64,000 bases of DNA from a virus, in the IMG/VR virus record IMGVR_UViG_3300046660_000510, positions 1 to 64,000 of that record, one strand, 5' to 3'. Below, one piece after another: positions 2,295-20,256 of the stretch. The position numbers and the translations under genes were made by a program. Positions within the stretch are counted from its first letter, which is position 1, and each line of letters opens with the position of its first letter. The notes beneath the pieces were generated by a model that was not told where the DNA came from, made no database searches, and saw only the letters and a program-made list of their open reading frames with translations.

Positions 2295-3500
2295 ATGACG
2301 ACCTTCCCGGAACTGCTCCGCGAGTGGCGCCTGGCTGCCCACATGTCCCTTGCGGACCTGGCCCAGCGCGTCCGCTACGACCGCACGTCGCTGCACAACT
2401 TCGAGACCGGCCGTCGGCCGACCCCGCGGTGTGTGGCGGAGGCCGCGGACGAGGCGACCGGAGCGAACGGCGCGCTGGTGGAGGCGTGGAACCGGGAGGA
2501 CTTGCAGCGGCGGGAGGCTGCGGCGACGCACCGGGTGAGGGCTGCGGCCCTGGCCATGACGCGGGATCTGACCGCACTGGCGGACCTGGACATCGCGGAG
2601 CTGCAGGACGGTGTGGCCGTTACGGCGGTCGACTATCTGGCGTCTCCCCCGGGTCCGATGATGGACCGGGCGCACGTGCTGCGCGGTGAGGCGTTCGAGC
2701 GGATCCGGTCTGGGCATCACCGCCCGGCTGACCGGTCCGATCTGTACGTGGCCGCGGGCAGGTTGTCCGGGGTGCTGTCGTACGCGCTGCTGGATATGGG
2801 CGACGCGGAGGAGGCGCTCGAGCACGCCACCGCGGCGGGCCGGTGCGCCGAGTTTGCCGGGGACGCCGAGCTGGCGGCCTGGGTGGCCGGGACGAAGTCG
2901 CTGATCGCTCGCTTCCAGGGCGACTACGGGCGCGCCCTGGAGTATGTGCGGGACGGCTACCAGTGGGTCGGTGCCGGGCACGGCACCGGTGAGGCGCGTC
3001 TGCGCTGTGGTGAGGCCCAGTGCCTCGCGAACCTCGGTGACAGCCGGGCCGCGAACCAGGCCCTGGACGGCGCCGAAGCAGCGCGCGAGCGGATCCGCAG
3101 GCCGGACACCCTGGAGGGACTGTTCGGGTTCTCGAGGGCGAAGCAGTCTTACTACGCCGGAAGCAGTCTGATCTGGCTGCAGGGCGGGCATGACGCGGAG
3201 CGTGCGGCGCGGGAAGCCCTCGAGGCGATCGCGCTGTGGCAGTCCGGTCCGGTGGAGGAACGGTCGCTGGATGACGAGCGGCTCGCCCACATCTACCTCG
3301 CCACCGCGCGGGTGCAGCTCGATGACGTGGAGGGCGCGGCCGATGCCCTGATCCCGGTCCTGTCGTTGCCAGTGGAAGACCAGATTTCGTGGATCGTGAA
3401 GCGCATGGACCGGATCGCGGGAATGCTCGGTGCTCCCCGGTACGCCGGTAACCAGACCGCTTCCGAGACGGTCGAACAGATCAACGCCCTCGCGGCGTGA
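2295..3500 (+). CDS. XRE-family HTH regulator with helical/TPR-like C-terminus
   Basis: LREWRLAAHMSLADLAQRVRYDRTSLHNFETGRR HTH_XRE; Ala-rich helical repeats. Confidence 0.85.
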   Translation: MTTFPELLREWRLAAHMSLADLAQRVRYDRTSLHNFETGRRPTPRCVAEAADEATGANGALVEAWNREDLQRREAAATHRVRAAALAMTRDLTALADLDIAELQDGVAVTAVDYLASPPGPMMDRAHVLRGEAFERIRSGHHRPADRSDLYVAAGRLSGVLSYALLDMGDAEEALEHATAAGRCAEFAGDAELAAWVAGTKSLIARFQGDYGRALEYVRDGYQWVGAGHGTGEARLRCGEAQCLANLGDSRAANQALDGAEAARERIRRPDTLEGLFGFSRAKQSYYAGSSLIWLQGGHDAERAAREALEAIALWQSGPVEERSLDDERLAHIYLATARVQLDDVEGAADALIPVLSLPVEDQISWIVKRMDRIAGMLGAPRYAGNQTASETVEQINALAA

Positions 3501-6981: not shown

Positions 6982-7019
6982 CTCTTGTATTGCGTACGTA
7001 ATAGAAGATGGGCTAGAGT
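6982..7019 (+). promoter_or_regulatory. conserved operator-promoter copy 1
   Basis: CTCTTGTATTGCGTACGTAATAGAAGATGGGCTAGAGT; TTGCGT-N18-TAGAGT. Confidence 0.75.
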
Positions 7020-15470: not shown

Positions 15471-16607
15471 TCAGACCGCCGTGTCCGCGGCAGGCGCGCT
15501 GTCGTTGACGAGATGGTCCGGCGACAGGGCCCACTGATAGATCAGCTCGTTCAGCGTCGACACCCCCCACAATCCCTTCAGCGCGGCGATCCGCTCCTCC
15601 AGCTTCCGCTTCGACACCCCGATCCGGCGGGCGATCGCCGGCTGCGAAACTCCAGCCGACAGGTAGCGGAGGATTTCCCGGTCCCGTTTCGACGTGCGTA
15701 CCCCGGTGGCACCGGACACGGTGTCCACGGCGGCGCTGCCACGCGCACGGAGTTCCCCGGTCCAGGGCTGCGCGTACATCCACGTGGTGTCATACAGCCT
15801 TGCGAGAATCGCTATTACGGCGCGGTCGGTGACATGCCAGGCGCCGTGCTCGGGGCCACCGGTGATGTGGTCGGATATGAAAGCCTGTTCCCGATCCACA
15901 ATGATCATTCGTTCGAAGGCGCCAGGCAGCGTCCGGTACTGCGCAGTCGACACCGTCGCATGTGTCGCCATGGTCCGCGCATACTCGGCCGTCACCGGAT
16001 GATCCCGCACCGTGTCCCGGTATATCGTCCGCATGCTCACACCCCGCTCCAGCGCGGAAGCGTCCCGGTCGACCGCCATCGCTAAAACCGTCTTGTCGCG
16101 GGGGCCGCCCGGCTGCGCGGCAAGGATCTCCCGTTTCGCACCGGCAACGACGTCCTGAATGCGCGCGTTCACGGTGGCCTGATCGCCGAGGTACTCGGAG
16201 GCACGCCCGGAACGGGACGAGGTGGCCGTGTACTGGCCGGCCAGCTGGTCCACGAGGCCCGGGAGGGCGGACATGAACGCGACGCGCCGTCTGGCCTCCT
16301 CGATCTGGGAGAACAGGACGTTTTCGAGGGCTTGCCGCGGATTCCTTACTACGGGCTTGCCGGGTCGGTCCGGGTCTTCGTGGATAAGTCCGAACGCGTC
16401 GAGTTCGCCGTATGCGTCCGGGTACTCGGCGGTAATATTTTCAGCCTGCACCCAGTCCTGCCGGGCATAAGCCCCAAACAGGCGGAACGCACCCGACGAC
16501 AACAAATCCCCGTCACTGCGCGCTATACCTGTGGTCAAAGGATGATCCCCCGTCAAACACCCTAGATCAACTGCGAGTTCCCGCACCGCGAACTCACGCA
16601 CGATCAA
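15471..16607 (-). CDS. TrmB/PLD-like sensor plus C-terminal LuxR HTH regulator; contains a TTA codon
   Basis: AKREILAAQPGG..RGVSMRTIY..FERMIIVDREQAFI; TSKRDREILRYLSAGVSQPAIARRIGVSKRKLEERI. Confidence 0.85.
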   Translation of the reverse strand: MIVREFAVRELAVDLGCLTGDHPLTTGIARSDGDLLSSGAFRLFGAYARQDWVQAENITAEYPDAYGELDAFGLIHEDPDRPGKPVVRNPRQALENVLFSQIEEARRRVAFMSALPGLVDQLAGQYTATSSRSGRASEYLGDQATVNARIQDVVAGAKREILAAQPGGPRDKTVLAMAVDRDASALERGVSMRTIYRDTVRDHPVTAEYARTMATHATVSTAQYRTLPGAFERMIIVDREQAFISDHITGGPEHGAWHVTDRAVIAILARLYDTTWMYAQPWTGELRARGSAAVDTVSGATGVRTSKRDREILRYLSAGVSQPAIARRIGVSKRKLEERIAALKGLWGVSTLNELIYQWALSPDHLVNDSAPAADTAV

Positions 16608-16809
16608 AACGTTGAGAACACAAACAGCCTACGGCAACGTAGTCCCGGGGCGTCCCCCGACGCTCGTACACCGCATCCTCCCCACGCACCGCACACGTCT
16701 ACTGCCAGAACTTCGGTTCGGTGCCAGGGGATCGCAGCAGGAAGCGGACCACGAGAATTCGGGCCAGGGCGCCCCGTTATCGTTTCCGAAACGATCGAGG
16801 GGACCCGTC

Positions 16810-17013
16810 ATGCCAAGTAAATGGCGTCATATCGCCGCCGGCCTCACCATCGCGGCCGCAGCAGCAACGGTCGGACTGACCGCAACGGAATCCGCAGCAG
16901 CACCCCACGCCAGGACGGTTGCCGATACCGGCTGGGGATCCCTGCCCGTTGACCTGCCCGTCACCCCACCGGTTGACCTGCCCGTGCTCCCGCTCGACAC
17001 CGCCTGGGGCTGA
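16810..17013 (+). CDS. 67-aa secreted peptide with two DT(G/A)WG motifs
   Basis: GAGGGGA RBS; Sec-type signal MPSKWRHIAAGLTIAAAAATVGLTATESAAA; DTGWG and C-terminal DTAWG. Confidence 0.75.
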   Translation: MPSKWRHIAAGLTIAAAAATVGLTATESAAAPHARTVADTGWGSLPVDLPVTPPVDLPVLPLDTAWG

Positions 17014-17021
17014 CCCGGCCC

Positions 17022-17065
17022 GGCCTGGCACGGCATGCCCAAGGGGGGACACCCCGTGCCAGGCC
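17022..17065 (+). terminator. hairpin after the peptide gene
   Basis: GGCCTGGCACGG...CCGTGCCAGGCC, 12-bp stem. Confidence 0.5.
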
Positions 17066-17114
17066 CGCACCAACCCGGGGGAACACCCGCCGCGATCCGC
17101 GGGAACGTTGACGC

Positions 17115-17369
17115 ATGGATGCCCCCGCCAAGCCCACCACTACAGCCCTGCCCGACCCGTTCATCACCACCGGTCCGGCCCTTTTCTACGTCACCACCCA
17201 GCAGGCCGATGCGACTCAGAGCGTGCAGCGCATCGACCTCGACTACACCGGTGATCCCCGCGAACGCGCCATCTGCCGCGCCTTGCTCCACCACGCCCTC
17301 GCCCTCCTGGACGCCAGCGAACCCGCACGCCGCGCACCCAGCGGGCCTGTTGAGGGCCGGAGGATCTGA
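17115..17369 (+). CDS. hypothetical protein
   Basis: ORF coupled to the next gene. Confidence 0.55.
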   Translation: MDAPAKPTTTALPDPFITTGPALFYVTTQQADATQSVQRIDLDYTGDPRERAICRALLHHALALLDASEPARRAPSGPVEGRRI

Positions 17370-18025: not shown

Positions 18026-18367
18026 TCATCCCTCGAGGTAGCCCAGCTCCGAGTCCGGCCGGCAATGCGAACACGCGGCAACGCCCTCCACCAGCGCCCG
18101 CAGTGCCGCATCCCGCGGTACGCCCTTCGAGCGTTTCCCCGCCATGTGGCAGCCGCCGACGTGCACGTACACGGGCGGCGTGTCCCGGCCCAGCGCCTGC
18201 TCGACAAGCCAGTCCGGGACCGGCGGTCGCGCCCGCTCCCCCTGCTGCCGCTCCTGCTCGCGGCGCAGCAGGTCCGCCTTCTTCTCCCGCACCCGGCCCA
18301 GGGCAACCACCAGATACGTCTCGATCGCCTCGAGGCGTGGCAGGTCAGGCGGCAGATCATCGTGCAT
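18026..18367 (-). CDS. DUF6233-like protein
   Basis: DLPPDLPRL...WLVE...VHVGGC...ACSHCRPDSELG. Confidence 0.75.
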   Translation of the reverse strand: MHDDLPPDLPRLEAIETYLVVALGRVREKKADLLRREQERQQGERARPPVPDWLVEQALGRDTPPVYVHVGGCHMAGKRSKGVPRDAALRALVEGVAACSHCRPDSELGYLEG

Positions 18368-18380
18368 GTGTTCGAGTGTA
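18360..18380 (-). promoter_or_regulatory. LexA-box-like site and -10 element over a leaderless start
   Basis: minus strand TACACTCGAACACATGCACGA vs actinobacterial TCGAAC-N4-GTTCGA. Confidence 0.45.
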
Positions 18381-18385
18381 GGCAC

Positions 18386-18425
18386 AAAAAAAGAGGGCCC
18401 CCTCGCTCCGAAGAACGAGGAGGCC
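18386..18425 (-). terminator. intrinsic terminator
   Basis: minus strand GGCCTCCTCG..CGAGGGGCC followed by CTC and a T7 tract. Confidence 0.7.
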
Positions 18426-18466
18426 ATCTCCTATCGATGCCCCCAGGCGTGTTCTCACCGTACGTC

Positions 18467-19126
18467 TCACTGCCGGTGCGGTGGAAGAACCGCGGTCACA
18501 CGCCGAGCCAGGACACCCGCGGCCGCCGGATCCATGCCCCGCGCGGCCTTCACCAGCTCCGGGACCAGGCGCTCCACGGACAGCACGTGCACCACCCCGC
18601 CCCCGGCCACCGGCGCGGGCAGGTACCCGCCGCGGATGCGTGAGCCGTGGATGACGAGCAGCGGCCACACCGCCACCCCCGGCATCCCCAGCACCCGATC
18701 CACGCGAGCCGCATACCGGGCCACCGCCTCTATCTGGTCGTGCCGGTCCTCGAGCCCGCAGTGCACCCGACCGTCCTTCAACTCGATGTCCTGCTGGAAG
18801 TGCCAGCGTTTCGTGTCCAGCACCACGACCGCAGTTCCGGTCGGCGGCACCAGGACGTGATCCAGGTCCGAGGAGTAGCCGGGGACCCGCCGGCCGTGAA
18901 GGACGTACCAGCCCCGGGACTCGAGGACACGCAGCTCCGCACCGGTCCGCTTCTCCGCCTCCGCCCCGCGGGCTACACGTGCGGTCAGGGCGTCCGCACG
19001 CTTAGCCGCCGGGTTCAACCCCACCCAGGCTGTGACGCGCCGCCGTACGCCCTTCCTGGCCTTCCGGCGCTCCCGCGCAGCCCACTCCAATGGAGACTGG
19101 CCCGCAGCGTTCCCAGAGCGCTTCAC
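18467..19126 (-). CDS. NERD (nuclease-related domain) protein
   Basis: RGAEAEKRT..L..GWYVLHGRRVPG..SDLDHVLV..VVVLDTKRW. Confidence 0.8.
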   Translation of the reverse strand: MKRSGNAAGQSPLEWAARERRKARKGVRRRVTAWVGLNPAAKRADALTARVARGAEAEKRTGAELRVLESRGWYVLHGRRVPGYSSDLDHVLVPPTGTAVVVLDTKRWHFQQDIELKDGRVHCGLEDRHDQIEAVARYAARVDRVLGMPGVAVWPLLVIHGSRIRGGYLPAPVAGGGVVHVLSVERLVPELVKAARGMDPAAAGVLARRVTAVLPPHRQ

Positions 19127-20256
19127 CGGTCCCCCTCCAGCCTCTTCAGGAATGCTTCCCGCGCAGCCGGGCCCTCGAAATGGTGGATAGCCCACGCCAA
19201 GGAGGTCCGGATGCCAGCGGCGATGCCTCCCTGAGTGGCCCGGCCCTCCTCCGCGCCCGGCCTCGGCGGCTGCGCAGCGCACGCGGCCATCTTCTTCAGG
19301 TCGGCCTCGAACTGGGCCTTCAGCCGCACGTACTCAGCCGGAACGGTCCCCCGCGTCGTCCCGGACTGGCCCGGTTCCGCCTCCTTCGCCCGGTCCATGG
19401 CCTCGAGCAGCCGGTCCGCGTAGTCGACGGACACGCCGTGCGGGGAGCAGAAGTCCCGCATCTCGGCCGCGAACTTGCGGGCCGCCGCCACCTCCGCCTT
19501 GAGACGGCCGATCTCCTCGCAGAGCAGATCCGTCGTCGGGCCCGTCACGTACGCCACCTTCTCGTCCGTCAGCAGACGCAGCCGCTCCCTGAGACGCCCA
19601 CTCTCCCCCTGGACGTCCTCGCCCGCCTGCCGGATCACGTCAGCCAGATCGGCGTGCGCGTAAGGGTCGTCGTCCTCCATGAACCCGGCATCGCACAGGG
19701 CCCGTCGGATGTCGTCGAGTTGGTGTTCCTTCACTCGGCGGGCCGAGTGGGCCAGGCGCAGCTTCTCCTGCAACTTCCCGACCTGCTCGGGCGCCTCGGC
19801 AACGAACTTGGCCTTCGCGGCGCGTACCAGGGCAGCCACCGCTTCCTGGCCCTCCTCGGTGAGGTCGCCTGATCCGCGAACCCGAACGGTCTCTCCGTCG
19901 ACCTCTACCGGACGACAGACGTCCTGCTCGCCGTGGTCAGCGGAGACGGGCCGGATCTCCTTCTGGTCGACGATCGCCTGCACGCGGCCCACCAGCCGCT
20001 CCGCCGCCGCCAGGCTGTACGACATTCGGCAGCCGCACGGTTCGTTCACCACCAGCCTGTTGTCGATATCCAGAGGCCCCGACAGGGGGCCGATCATCTG
20101 CTCCCGCACGTTCGCTGCGCACAGAGCACACGGCGGGACCGGGTAGACCAGGAGCTTGTGGCCGCGGCGCCGCTTCCGGTTCCGGTACTCGCTGGCCACC
20201 ATCAGGGTCAGCAACTGTTCGTCGGTGAGTTCGGGGGTCTCGGTTCGGTCGCTCAT
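19123..20256 (-). CDS. mosaic hypothetical phage protein
   Basis: long ORF with GGAG RBS. Confidence 0.65.
   Translation of the reverse strand: MSDRTETPELTDEQLLTLMVASEYRNRKRRRGHKLLVYPVPPCALCAANVREQMIGPLSGPLDIDNRLVVNEPCGCRMSYSLAAAERLVGRVQAIVDQKEIRPVSADHGEQDVCRPVEVDGETVRVRGSGDLTEEGQEAVAALVRAAKAKFVAEAPEQVGKLQEKLRLAHSARRVKEHQLDDIRRALCDAGFMEDDDPYAHADLADVIRQAGEDVQGESGRLRERLRLLTDEKVAYVTGPTTDLLCEEIGRLKAEVAAARKFAAEMRDFCSPHGVSVDYADRLLEAMDRAKEAEPGQSGTTRGTVPAEYVRLKAQFEADLKKMAACAAQPPRPGAEEGRATQGGIAAGIRTSLAWAIHHFEGPAAREAFLKRLEGDR

Follow-up and report, generated by a model that had tools for sequence, protein, structure and literature searches.

The window analysed here, a 64,000-nucleotide (nt) stretch of DNA (positions 1 to 64,000 of the IMG/VR virus record IMGVR_UViG_3300046660_000510; approximately 69% GC), carries a divergent cassette in which a minus-strand gene for a putative transcriptional regulator lies head-to-head with a plus-strand open reading frame (ORF) for a 67-amino acid (aa) propeptide, which is followed by a hairpin. 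With moderate confidence, this cassette is read as a self-contained peptide pheromone–receptor system, an analogue of the arbitrium system of Bacillus phages that would have been assembled from unrelated parts. The three-part architecture of the cassette, its conservation and the predicted fold of the receptor were established by comparison; every mechanistic step after transcription is one that we infer from sequence. The features of the two genes are as follows.

15471-16538, minus strand: regulator gene, an ORF of 355 aa with a TTG start at 16538
16546-16551, minus strand: ribosome-binding site (RBS) of the regulator, GGGGGA in the minus-strand reading; a CCCCCG block 9 nt from TTG(G/A)CCA, conserved in 22 aligned loci
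16797-16803, plus strand: RBS of the propeptide gene, GAGGGGA; in 40 loci a conserved GAAAGGA-like block precedes the start codon by 6-10 nt
16810-17013, plus strand: propeptide gene, 67 aa and a stop codon, with the translation MPSKWRHIAAGLTIAAAAATVGLTATESAAAPHARTVADTGWGSLPVDLPVTPPVDLPVLPLDTAWG
approximately residues 1-30 of the propeptide, plus strand: signal-peptide-like N-terminus, judged by charge and hydrophobicity
16924-16938, plus strand: core 1, DTGWG (residues 39-43)
between the two cores, plus strand: spacer with PVDLPV twice
16996-17010, plus strand: core 2, DTAWG, the last five residues
17022-17065, plus strand: GC-rich terminator-like hairpin with a 12-bp stem and no U-tract, from a fold of 17008-17120

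The divergent ORFs, the signal-like N-terminus, DTGWG, the C-terminal DTAWG, the PVDLPV ×2 spacer and the hairpin had all been described in the initial annotation of this DNA, and all are present.

Regulator and propeptide gene are found together across a wide range of replicons. A regulator was counted as linked when accompanied by a divergent small ORF with a signal-peptide-like N-terminus and two or three D[TS]xWG cores, the final core standing at the protein end. So defined, the peptide is present at 3/3 syntenic plasmid loci, in 8/8 species-representative genomes, on 9/9 IMG/VR contigs (one of them an unrelated 36-kb contig whose regulator is only 28% identical) and on 20/20 metagenome contigs with approximately 500 bp or more of upstream sequence; the eight metagenome loci in which no peptide was seen each have 300 bp of upstream sequence or less. 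It is also present in seven further plasmids, where the regulators are 31-52% identical and the cores read DSAWG and DSDWG. The search was also run in reverse, from the peptide pattern alone (three spacer ranges, 2.9 million viral contigs), and the regulator was adjacent in 14 of the 15 contigs recovered, the fifteenth ending before the regulator position. All 15 of these matches to the DNA pattern of two cores and a stop codon, among 2.9 million IMG/VR contigs, belong to this one element family, and the pattern is therefore beyond chance. On chromosomes, seven loci were chosen by eye, on the peptide only, from matches to a degenerate two-core pattern in 401 genomes; such matches were no more frequent than those to a reversed control and thus provide no estimate of prevalence. 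A regulator approximately 30% identical directly adjoins the peptide in six of these seven, in divergent or convergent orientation. Variant cores ending in W, WN, WD or WQ (DSVW, DSAWN, DSGWN, DSVWD) are found with chromosomal homologues of the regulator. Most of the weaker chromosomal paralogues first sampled are without a peptide. The pair is thus kept from approximately 100% down to approximately 30% regulator identity and across a change of orientation, and it occurs on chromosomes as well as on phage-plasmids, further plasmids and further viral contigs. Over approximately 55 loci the regulator is the sole constant neighbour of the propeptide gene. The initial annotation had named a lack of linkage between homologous regulators and xWG peptides as grounds for abandoning its proposal; linkage held wherever it could be assessed, including in the chromosomal homologues of approximately 30% identity and in both orientations.

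The anatomy of the propeptide was compared across 49 distinct homologous precursors, with signal peptides called heuristically from net charge and a 12-aa Kyte-Doolittle window. Precursors are 50-95 aa long (median 70) and contain either two cores (30 precursors) or three (19). The precursor encoded by the 89.7-kb plasmid of S. ambofaciens ATCC 23877, a cultivable carrier, has three DTAWG cores. A charged N-region and a hydrophobic core, as in Sec-type signal peptides, were found in 49/49, with an N-region net charge of at least +1 (median +3) and a best Kyte-Doolittle window of at least 1.6 in every case. Between 8 and 33 residues (mode 15) separate the hydrophobic core from the first D-T-x-W-G core, and internal cores are usually followed by x-Pro. 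The D[TS]xW[GNQD] cores are the only conserved part of the precursor, and the final one always coincides with the end of the protein. Spacers vary freely in length and composition, always keeping the reading frame, and the codons of the cores are synonymous (each of the four Gly codons occurs, and Ser is written with TCN as well as AGC codons); the constraint therefore acts on amino acids. Conserved cores in several copies, the last at a free C-terminus, are the signature of a precursor that would be cut into short peptides. A signal-peptidase cut directly before the first core was considered as a general rule and rejected, the -1 residue often being P, Q or D, and conservation of the frame across approximately 55 loci effectively excludes a spurious ORF. 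The propeptide has no match in Pfam, PHROGs or NCBIfam, and a search of the ESM Atlas found only unnamed actinobacterial secreted-protein clusters below 0.9. A strong hairpin occupies the matching position downstream of the gene in homologues (median minimum free energy -37 kcal/mol over 72 nt, n=46), and Streptomyces terminators usually lack a U-tract.

The longest ORF for the regulator runs from 15471 to 16607 on the minus strand and encodes 378 aa, the length taken in the initial annotation; the residue numbers used here follow that form. The start is most likely the TTG at 16538, giving 355 aa, because the first 23 codons of the longer ORF are unconserved and disordered in the structural model (predicted local distance difference test, pLDDT, below 50), because the conserved GGGGGA RBS precedes the conserved TTG(G/A)CCA, and because the corresponding database entry has 355 aa. 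The predicted domains of the protein are as follows.

residues 38-87: winged helix-turn-helix (HTH), from AF2 model and profile
residues 90-130: long coiled-coil helix of 40 residues, from AF2 model
residues 137-282: PLD-like TrmB-type effector domain (alpha/beta), from AF2 model and profile
residues 307-366: C-terminal four-helix LuxR/GerE HTH, from AF2 model and profile

Single-sequence Pfam searches gave weak matches, to the TrmB C-domain (E 0.007, below cut-off), DUF7436 and GerE (17.9 bits versus 23.5), and the NCBIfam match covers the HTH only (residues 302-355, 20 bits versus a cut-off of 216). When a profile of 105 family sequences was compared with the PDB, TrmBL2 was matched at E 1e-10 over profile positions 31-250 (hmmsearch) and the last 65 positions matched NarL (1.1e-9) and GerE (3.1e-9); the search returned TrmBL2 and NarL/GerE only, and no RRNPP structure. 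The AF2 model has a mean pLDDT of 87, and Foldseek placed TrmBL2, TrmB and PLD-fold proteins on top (5bpi, 5bpd, 3qph, 2f5t; E 1e-11). Neither a tetratricopeptide repeat (TPR) domain nor an acyl-homoserine lactone (AHL) autoinducer-binding domain was matched in Pfam. Since profile and Foldseek both put TrmBL2/TrmB first, the regulator is, as modelled, a TrmB-like sensor with a LuxR HTH and not an RRNPP protein, which agrees with the initial annotation. An E-I-L-A-A-Q-P-G-G-P-R loop at residues 160-170 is nearly invariant. The family comprises, among the candidates scored, 306 clusters at 90% identity (E<=1e-5) and, at 50% identity, 193 representatives at E<=1e-30 and 1,176 at E<=1e-10. Regulators of the phage-plasmid type (E<=1e-60) occur in 8/401 sampled Streptomycetaceae genomes.

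The variable position x of the core appears to be tracked by one residue of the receptor. Within a precursor x is mostly common to all copies (AA/AAA, GG/GGG, TT/TTT, WW, SSS, HH), and it switches between closely related regulators, the tree needing at least 11 changes (WW is sister to AAA, and GGG to A). Among 343 regulator columns, column 174 is the best predictor of x, with a normalised mutual information of 0.70 versus 0.55 for the runner-up, and when rows with A or G only are considered it reaches 0.46 versus 0.28 for the next column. Residue 174, which is Val in the regulator of the window, lies on the helix that immediately follows the invariant AQPGGPR loop, and its state goes with x in this way.

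x = A: residue 174 is L in 15/17
x = G present: residue 174 is V or I in 11/13
x = T: residue 174 is Q in 10/10
x = H: residue 174 is Q in 1/1

Deep lineages fit the same rule, with I in L071 (GG) and L in L083 and L084 (DSAWG). The co-variation is suggestive of direct contact between peptide and receptor, at a level that is not significant. Prediction of a complex between regulator residues 37-378 and propeptide residues 30-67, using alignments, returned a score of 0.10, which speaks neither for nor against binding.

The reading of the cassette as a ligand–receptor pair is favoured because the logic of a multi-core propeptide and a co-varying receptor residue both fit it, and because the fold of the sensor is that of the ligand-binding TrmB effector domain. 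In the mechanism that we propose, the propeptide would be exported by Sec and cut outside the cell to release short D-T-x-W-G peptides, the terminal copy needing a single cut and the internal copies preceding x-Pro. The peptides would build up with the density of element-carrying cells, be re-imported by an oligopeptide permease and bind the PLD-like domain of the sensor, close to residue 174 and the AQPGGPR loop. Binding would alter the action of the regulator at, or its occupancy of, two palindromes in the control region, and transcription of a leader RNA and the propeptide would thereby be set by auto-induction, possibly along with that of the regulator gene and other targets. The leader RNA might gate how the propeptide message is translated or how stable it is, or might itself be a regulatory RNA output like aimX. 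On a phage-plasmid, such a cassette would sense how many neighbouring cells already carry the element or a relative, and might feed this into a decision on induction, copy number or late genes.

The closest known system by function is arbitrium (AimR-AimP-AimX of Bacillus SPbeta-like phages), with which the cassette shares a temperate phage element as carrier, a receptor-transcription factor beside a signal-peptide propeptide gene, a conserved C-terminal peptide part, dialect-like variation between related elements and a non-coding RNA in the module. It is an analogue of arbitrium and not a member, because the TPR receptor that defines arbitrium was tested for and is absent. The receptor here is TrmB-like with a LuxR HTH and has no TPR/RRNPP fold, there are two or three tandem cores where arbitrium has one, and the RNA is an upstream leader of the peptide ORF whereas that of arbitrium lies downstream. 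The cassette also differs in having a high-GC actinomycete as host and in belonging to a family that is found on plasmids and chromosomes too. With the RRNPP systems of the Firmicutes (Rap/Phr, NprR/NprX, PlcR/PapR, PrgX) the cassette would share an exported, processed and re-imported oligopeptide, an adjacent cytoplasmic receptor and diversification of pherotypes, but it has no TPR domain and no relationship to them in sequence or fold. The N-terminal winged HTH, the long dimerisation helix and the PLD-like effector domain are those of TrmB and TrmBL2, to which the regulator adds a C-terminal LuxR/GerE HTH and a partner gene that encodes a peptide; the characterised ligands of TrmB are sugars, and TrmBL2 has no known ligand. 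Cell-density signalling, a cytoplasmic receptor-regulator and a C-terminal HTH of the LuxR/GerE class recall the gamma-butyrolactone/ArpA-type systems of Streptomyces and the AHL/LuxR systems, whose signals are, unlike the peptide proposed here, small, lipophilic and made by a synthase; the cassette has no AHL domain, no TetR fold and no synthase. The immunity RNAs P1 c4 and P4 CI are likewise structured RNAs in the 5' leader of a regulated phage-plasmid operon, with a loop complementary to a downstream segment, but there is no sequence or Rfam relationship between them and the leader found here.

The control region was aligned over 330 bp upstream of the propeptide start in 22 loci, and in these its non-coding sequence, including the leader, is more conserved at the nucleotide level than either protein. 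Its elements are as follows.

16572-16585: O1, 14-bp palindrome TGCG-N6-CGCA, TGCGAGTTCCCGCA, candidate operator
16587-16600: O2, 14-bp palindrome TGCG-N6-CGCA, CGCGAACTCACGCA, adjacent to O1, candidate operator
16613-16618, plus strand: -35-like TTGAGA, in a conserved TTGA block
16635-16640, plus strand: weak -10-like CAACGT with a conserved final T, in a TACG.CA...T block
16647-16775, plus strand: structured leader RNA, a rod-like hairpin of approximately 130 nt, from covariation and a common fold
16647-16654 with 16768-16775, plus strand: closing helix of the leader, in which GGGGCGUC pairs with GGCGCCCC; the 3' arm in homologues is G(A/G)CGCCCC
16699-16708, plus strand: invariant apical loop CUACUGCCAG
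16731-16738, plus strand: invariant 3' bulge (A/U)UCGCAGC

The half-sites of O1 and O2 are conserved and their spacers variable across the 22 loci, the regulators of which are 40-70% identical, and TGCG-N6-CGCA has only one other copy in the window. The two palindromes are a candidate operator of the divergent control region, and the regulator is the presumed binding protein. A scan of the control region for the sigma-70 consensus found nothing, and the promoter elements given above are assigned by position; palindromes just upstream of a poor promoter would, from their position, fit activation. Elsewhere, the window contains a palindromic operator-promoter unit in five copies (at 6982, 9770, 24427 on the minus strand, 31541 on the minus strand, and 45795), in which the sequence CTTGTATTGCG(Y)(R)CG(Y)AATAGA precedes a TAnnnT -10 element. 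This operator (CTTGTATTGCGYRCGYAATAGA) was considered as the same site as O1/O2 and rejected, the sequences being different, and the regulon that it would define is probably under a different repressor.

The leader is approximately 160 nt long and starts with GGGGCGUCCCCC at 16647. Its anchor precedes the start codon by 131-221 nt (mostly 156-184) in 45/45 loci of the phage-plasmid type and is absent from five distant loci. The same rod fold, with four helical tiers besides the closing helix, was recovered in 14/14 sampled homologues. Over 23 basal pairs in a structure-blind MAFFT alignment, 88.9% of cells are paired, compared with 40-54% when the partners are slid, and compensatory double changes occur in 32 cells versus 9.9 in shuffles, none of 500 of which reached 32; examples include CUCGU/ACGAG changing to CCCGU/ACGGG or CCUGU/ACAGG. 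The apical arm duplex is also more stable than with permuted partners (-12.6 versus -9.7 kcal/mol, 0/10,000); RNAalifold, given only the apical hairpin, found no pairs, since arms that differ in length cannot be aligned by MAFFT. The RNA is assigned to the plus strand because U-G pairs are frequent. The CUGC of the apical loop is complementary to the GCAG of the bulge, and both are invariant. A 21-nt leader motif, present in a single copy in the window, was found in 13 IMG/VR contigs, 13/13 of which carry the peptide and the regulator. An Rfam search (cmscan of 16350-17250, E up to 10) gave only a spurious 15-bit microRNA match and no family. The leader is a candidate new RNA family and is confined to the phage-plasmid clade.

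Several observations weigh against a returning signal. Export, cleavage, import and binding are predictions from sequence; the residue preceding the first core is often unlike that at position -1 of a signal-peptidase site, so additional proteases would be needed; and characterised TrmB sensors bind sugars, not peptides. The most conserved element of the locus is the leader RNA, whose role the proposed mechanism does not need. The x/174 rule is broken in L007, L077, L064 and L073, the precursor of the window itself mixes G and A at x, and distant chromosomal homologues have other residues at position 174, loosely complementary in size to x (I with A, A with M, G with T). The initial annotation had named co-variation of peptide motif and receptor as a check: column 174 does rank first among the 343, but independent contrasts of x against residue 174 were concordant in three cases, discordant in none and unchanged in one, which with four usable contrasts is not significant (p=0.25). 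Lastly, the regulator of L085 has no peptide and is neighboured by an insertion sequence (IS) element, and in L081 and L082 the sole candidate is an ORF without a signal peptide that ends in RRDSAWGC, which may be a decayed or non-secreted variant.

A less probable explanation, though one to be taken seriously, is one-way control, in which the regulator would sense some other small molecule and switch on a secreted peptide that never returns to it; the peptide might instead target the envelope, a host membrane sensor or competitors, or serve as a factor for superinfection exclusion or development. An activator devoted to a single target gene would be linked to it just as tightly, the fold matched is that of TrmB and TrmBL2, the characterised TrmB effector domains bind sugars, and the mature product could be 35-45 aa long with D-T-x-W-G near each end, possibly a bivalent binder. 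What one-way control does not predict is that conservation should be limited to five-residue cores, or that, of 343 columns, the one that tracks x best should lie in the sensor domain. The repeated cores, the leader-like N-terminus and the invariant Trp of the precursors also resemble several classes of ribosomally synthesised and post-translationally modified peptide (RiPP), and the cores might be modified by unlinked enzymes of the host or the element (by Trp modification or cyclisation, for example), with the regulator as pathway activator. We consider this improbable: in none of the approximately 55 loci is the pair accompanied by a conserved modifying enzyme, dedicated protease or transporter, and the N-terminus is a classical signal peptide and not a RiPP leader. 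In the window, the neighbours of the pair either have no Pfam match or belong to DUF6233 and NERD, in line with the report of the initial annotation that no RiPP-modifying enzyme lies nearby. There is a similarly slim chance that the leader is the main effector of an RNA-centred immunity, in the manner of P1 c4, P4 CI or aimX, with the regulator controlling the leader and the small ORF as a passenger. Its standing as the most conserved sequence of the locus, its compensatory covariation, its linkage to the cassette in 13/13 IMG/VR contigs and the complementarity of invariant loop and bulge would all suit such a role, but no target site for the RNA was identified, and the RNA is found only in the phage-plasmid clade whereas other plasmids, viral contigs and chromosomes keep the regulator–peptide pair in its absence, which argues that the peptide is not a passenger. 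The peptide-sensing interpretation first offered for this locus is partly supported, by the linkage, the fold, the multi-core logic and the co-variation; it had missed the operator palindromes and the leader RNA, and the family is not specific to phages.

The element itself is a member of the pZL12-type phage-plasmid family. ParB, a DNA methyltransferase, an endolysin and tail genes are encoded in the window, and its closest relatives are Streptomyces plasmids of 88-94 kb and IMG/VR viral contigs of 85-97 kb, so the phage-plasmid setting given in the initial annotation holds. Zhong et al. 2010, cited in PMC4487206, described both plasmid and lytic cycles for the family. The sequencing data in which carriers were found are, among the matches listed, DNA metagenomes from soil and rhizosphere, with no RNA data set. 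At 13 plasmid loci, the neighbouring genes are annotated either as hypothetical or as regulatory. In the window, a DUF6233 gene and then a gene for a NERD nuclease-related protein (18026-19282, minus strand) lie just downstream of the module, and the two stand at the equivalent position in two of three related plasmids, the third having NERD only. Directly after the terminator hairpin, at 17077-17117 on the plus strand, GGGGGAAC-N22-CGTTGAC-GC-ATG abuts the ATG of an 84-aa ORF without family (17115-17369), and GG(G/C)AAC ... ACCGT(G/A)GA(C/G)-N2-ATG is kept in eight of the first 12 loci; this element resembles a binding site or the promoter of a leaderless mRNA, and the regulator might act on it as well. 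Further away, at 2295-3500 on the plus strand, a 401-aa protein combines an N-terminal XRE-type HTH (PF13560) with a TPR-like body of the NsdA family (NCBIfam NF053720 at 98 bits, cut-off 75; 'transcriptional repressor/regulator' in PHROG), an arrangement of HTH and TPR that is RRNPP-like.

Relatives of the cassette stand in varied company. In two 130-kb Streptomyces plasmids (L083, L084) a DSAWG-type cassette without the leader RNA adjoins a gene for a sigma factor of the sigma-70 family, and what the cassette controls may vary with the type of element. In L081 (1080-1379, minus strand) and L082 (1070-1522, minus strand), which are linear Streptomyces plasmids in the range 92-220 kb, the regulator is 44% identical and a DUF4344 metallopeptidase gene lies downstream of it. 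Two chromosomal loci from two Streptomyces genomes (L029, L030) contain weaker regulator paralogues in two or three adjacent copies, one of which, in L029, has a divergent signal-peptide ORF ending in DDSVWD and a stop codon. This suggests, from gene content, that the receptor family has expanded by paralogy on chromosomes.

Two things are added here to what had been seen at this locus, namely an operator and a structured RNA within the module, and a genus-wide family of regulator–peptide pairs that extends beyond phages. More tentatively than for the cassette itself, we propose that Streptomyces and their mobile elements may hold a widespread and unrecognised family of pheromone–receptor pairs, in which a multi-core propeptide of the form D-[T/S]-x-W-[G/N/Q/D] would be exported and a TrmB-fold protein with a LuxR HTH would be its receptor. 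To our knowledge, peptide-based communication between phages is known only from Bacillus-type hosts and with RRNPP receptors, and nothing in the literature searched contradicts this. Neither the motif, nor a TrmB/LuxR regulator with a peptide partner, nor peptide communication by Streptomyces phages was found described in full-text literature, a provisional result as coverage was incomplete. Signalling in Streptomyces is thought of as gamma-butyrolactone chemistry. If the proposal is true, this would be, as far as we know, the first peptide quorum sensing in actinomycetes and the first phage communication outside the RRNPP family. A second, unrelated solution in actinomycetes would imply convergent evolution of peptide 'dialects', and the TrmB fold would have acquired a new, peptide-binding use. 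Pherotype specificity would be set by residue x of the peptide and residue 174 of the receptor, and a clade of phage-plasmids of approximately 90 kb would have taken up the pair, and a new structured RNA with it, for use as an arbitrium-like communication switch. The predictions are concrete, naming particular pentapeptides, a single residue for specificity and exact operator sites, and would thus be cheap to test. The cassette would then offer a handle on how Streptomyces phage-plasmids of approximately 90 kb choose between plasmid carriage and lytic growth, and its chromosomal relatives suggest an unrecognised layer of cell–cell signalling in the main antibiotic-producing genus.

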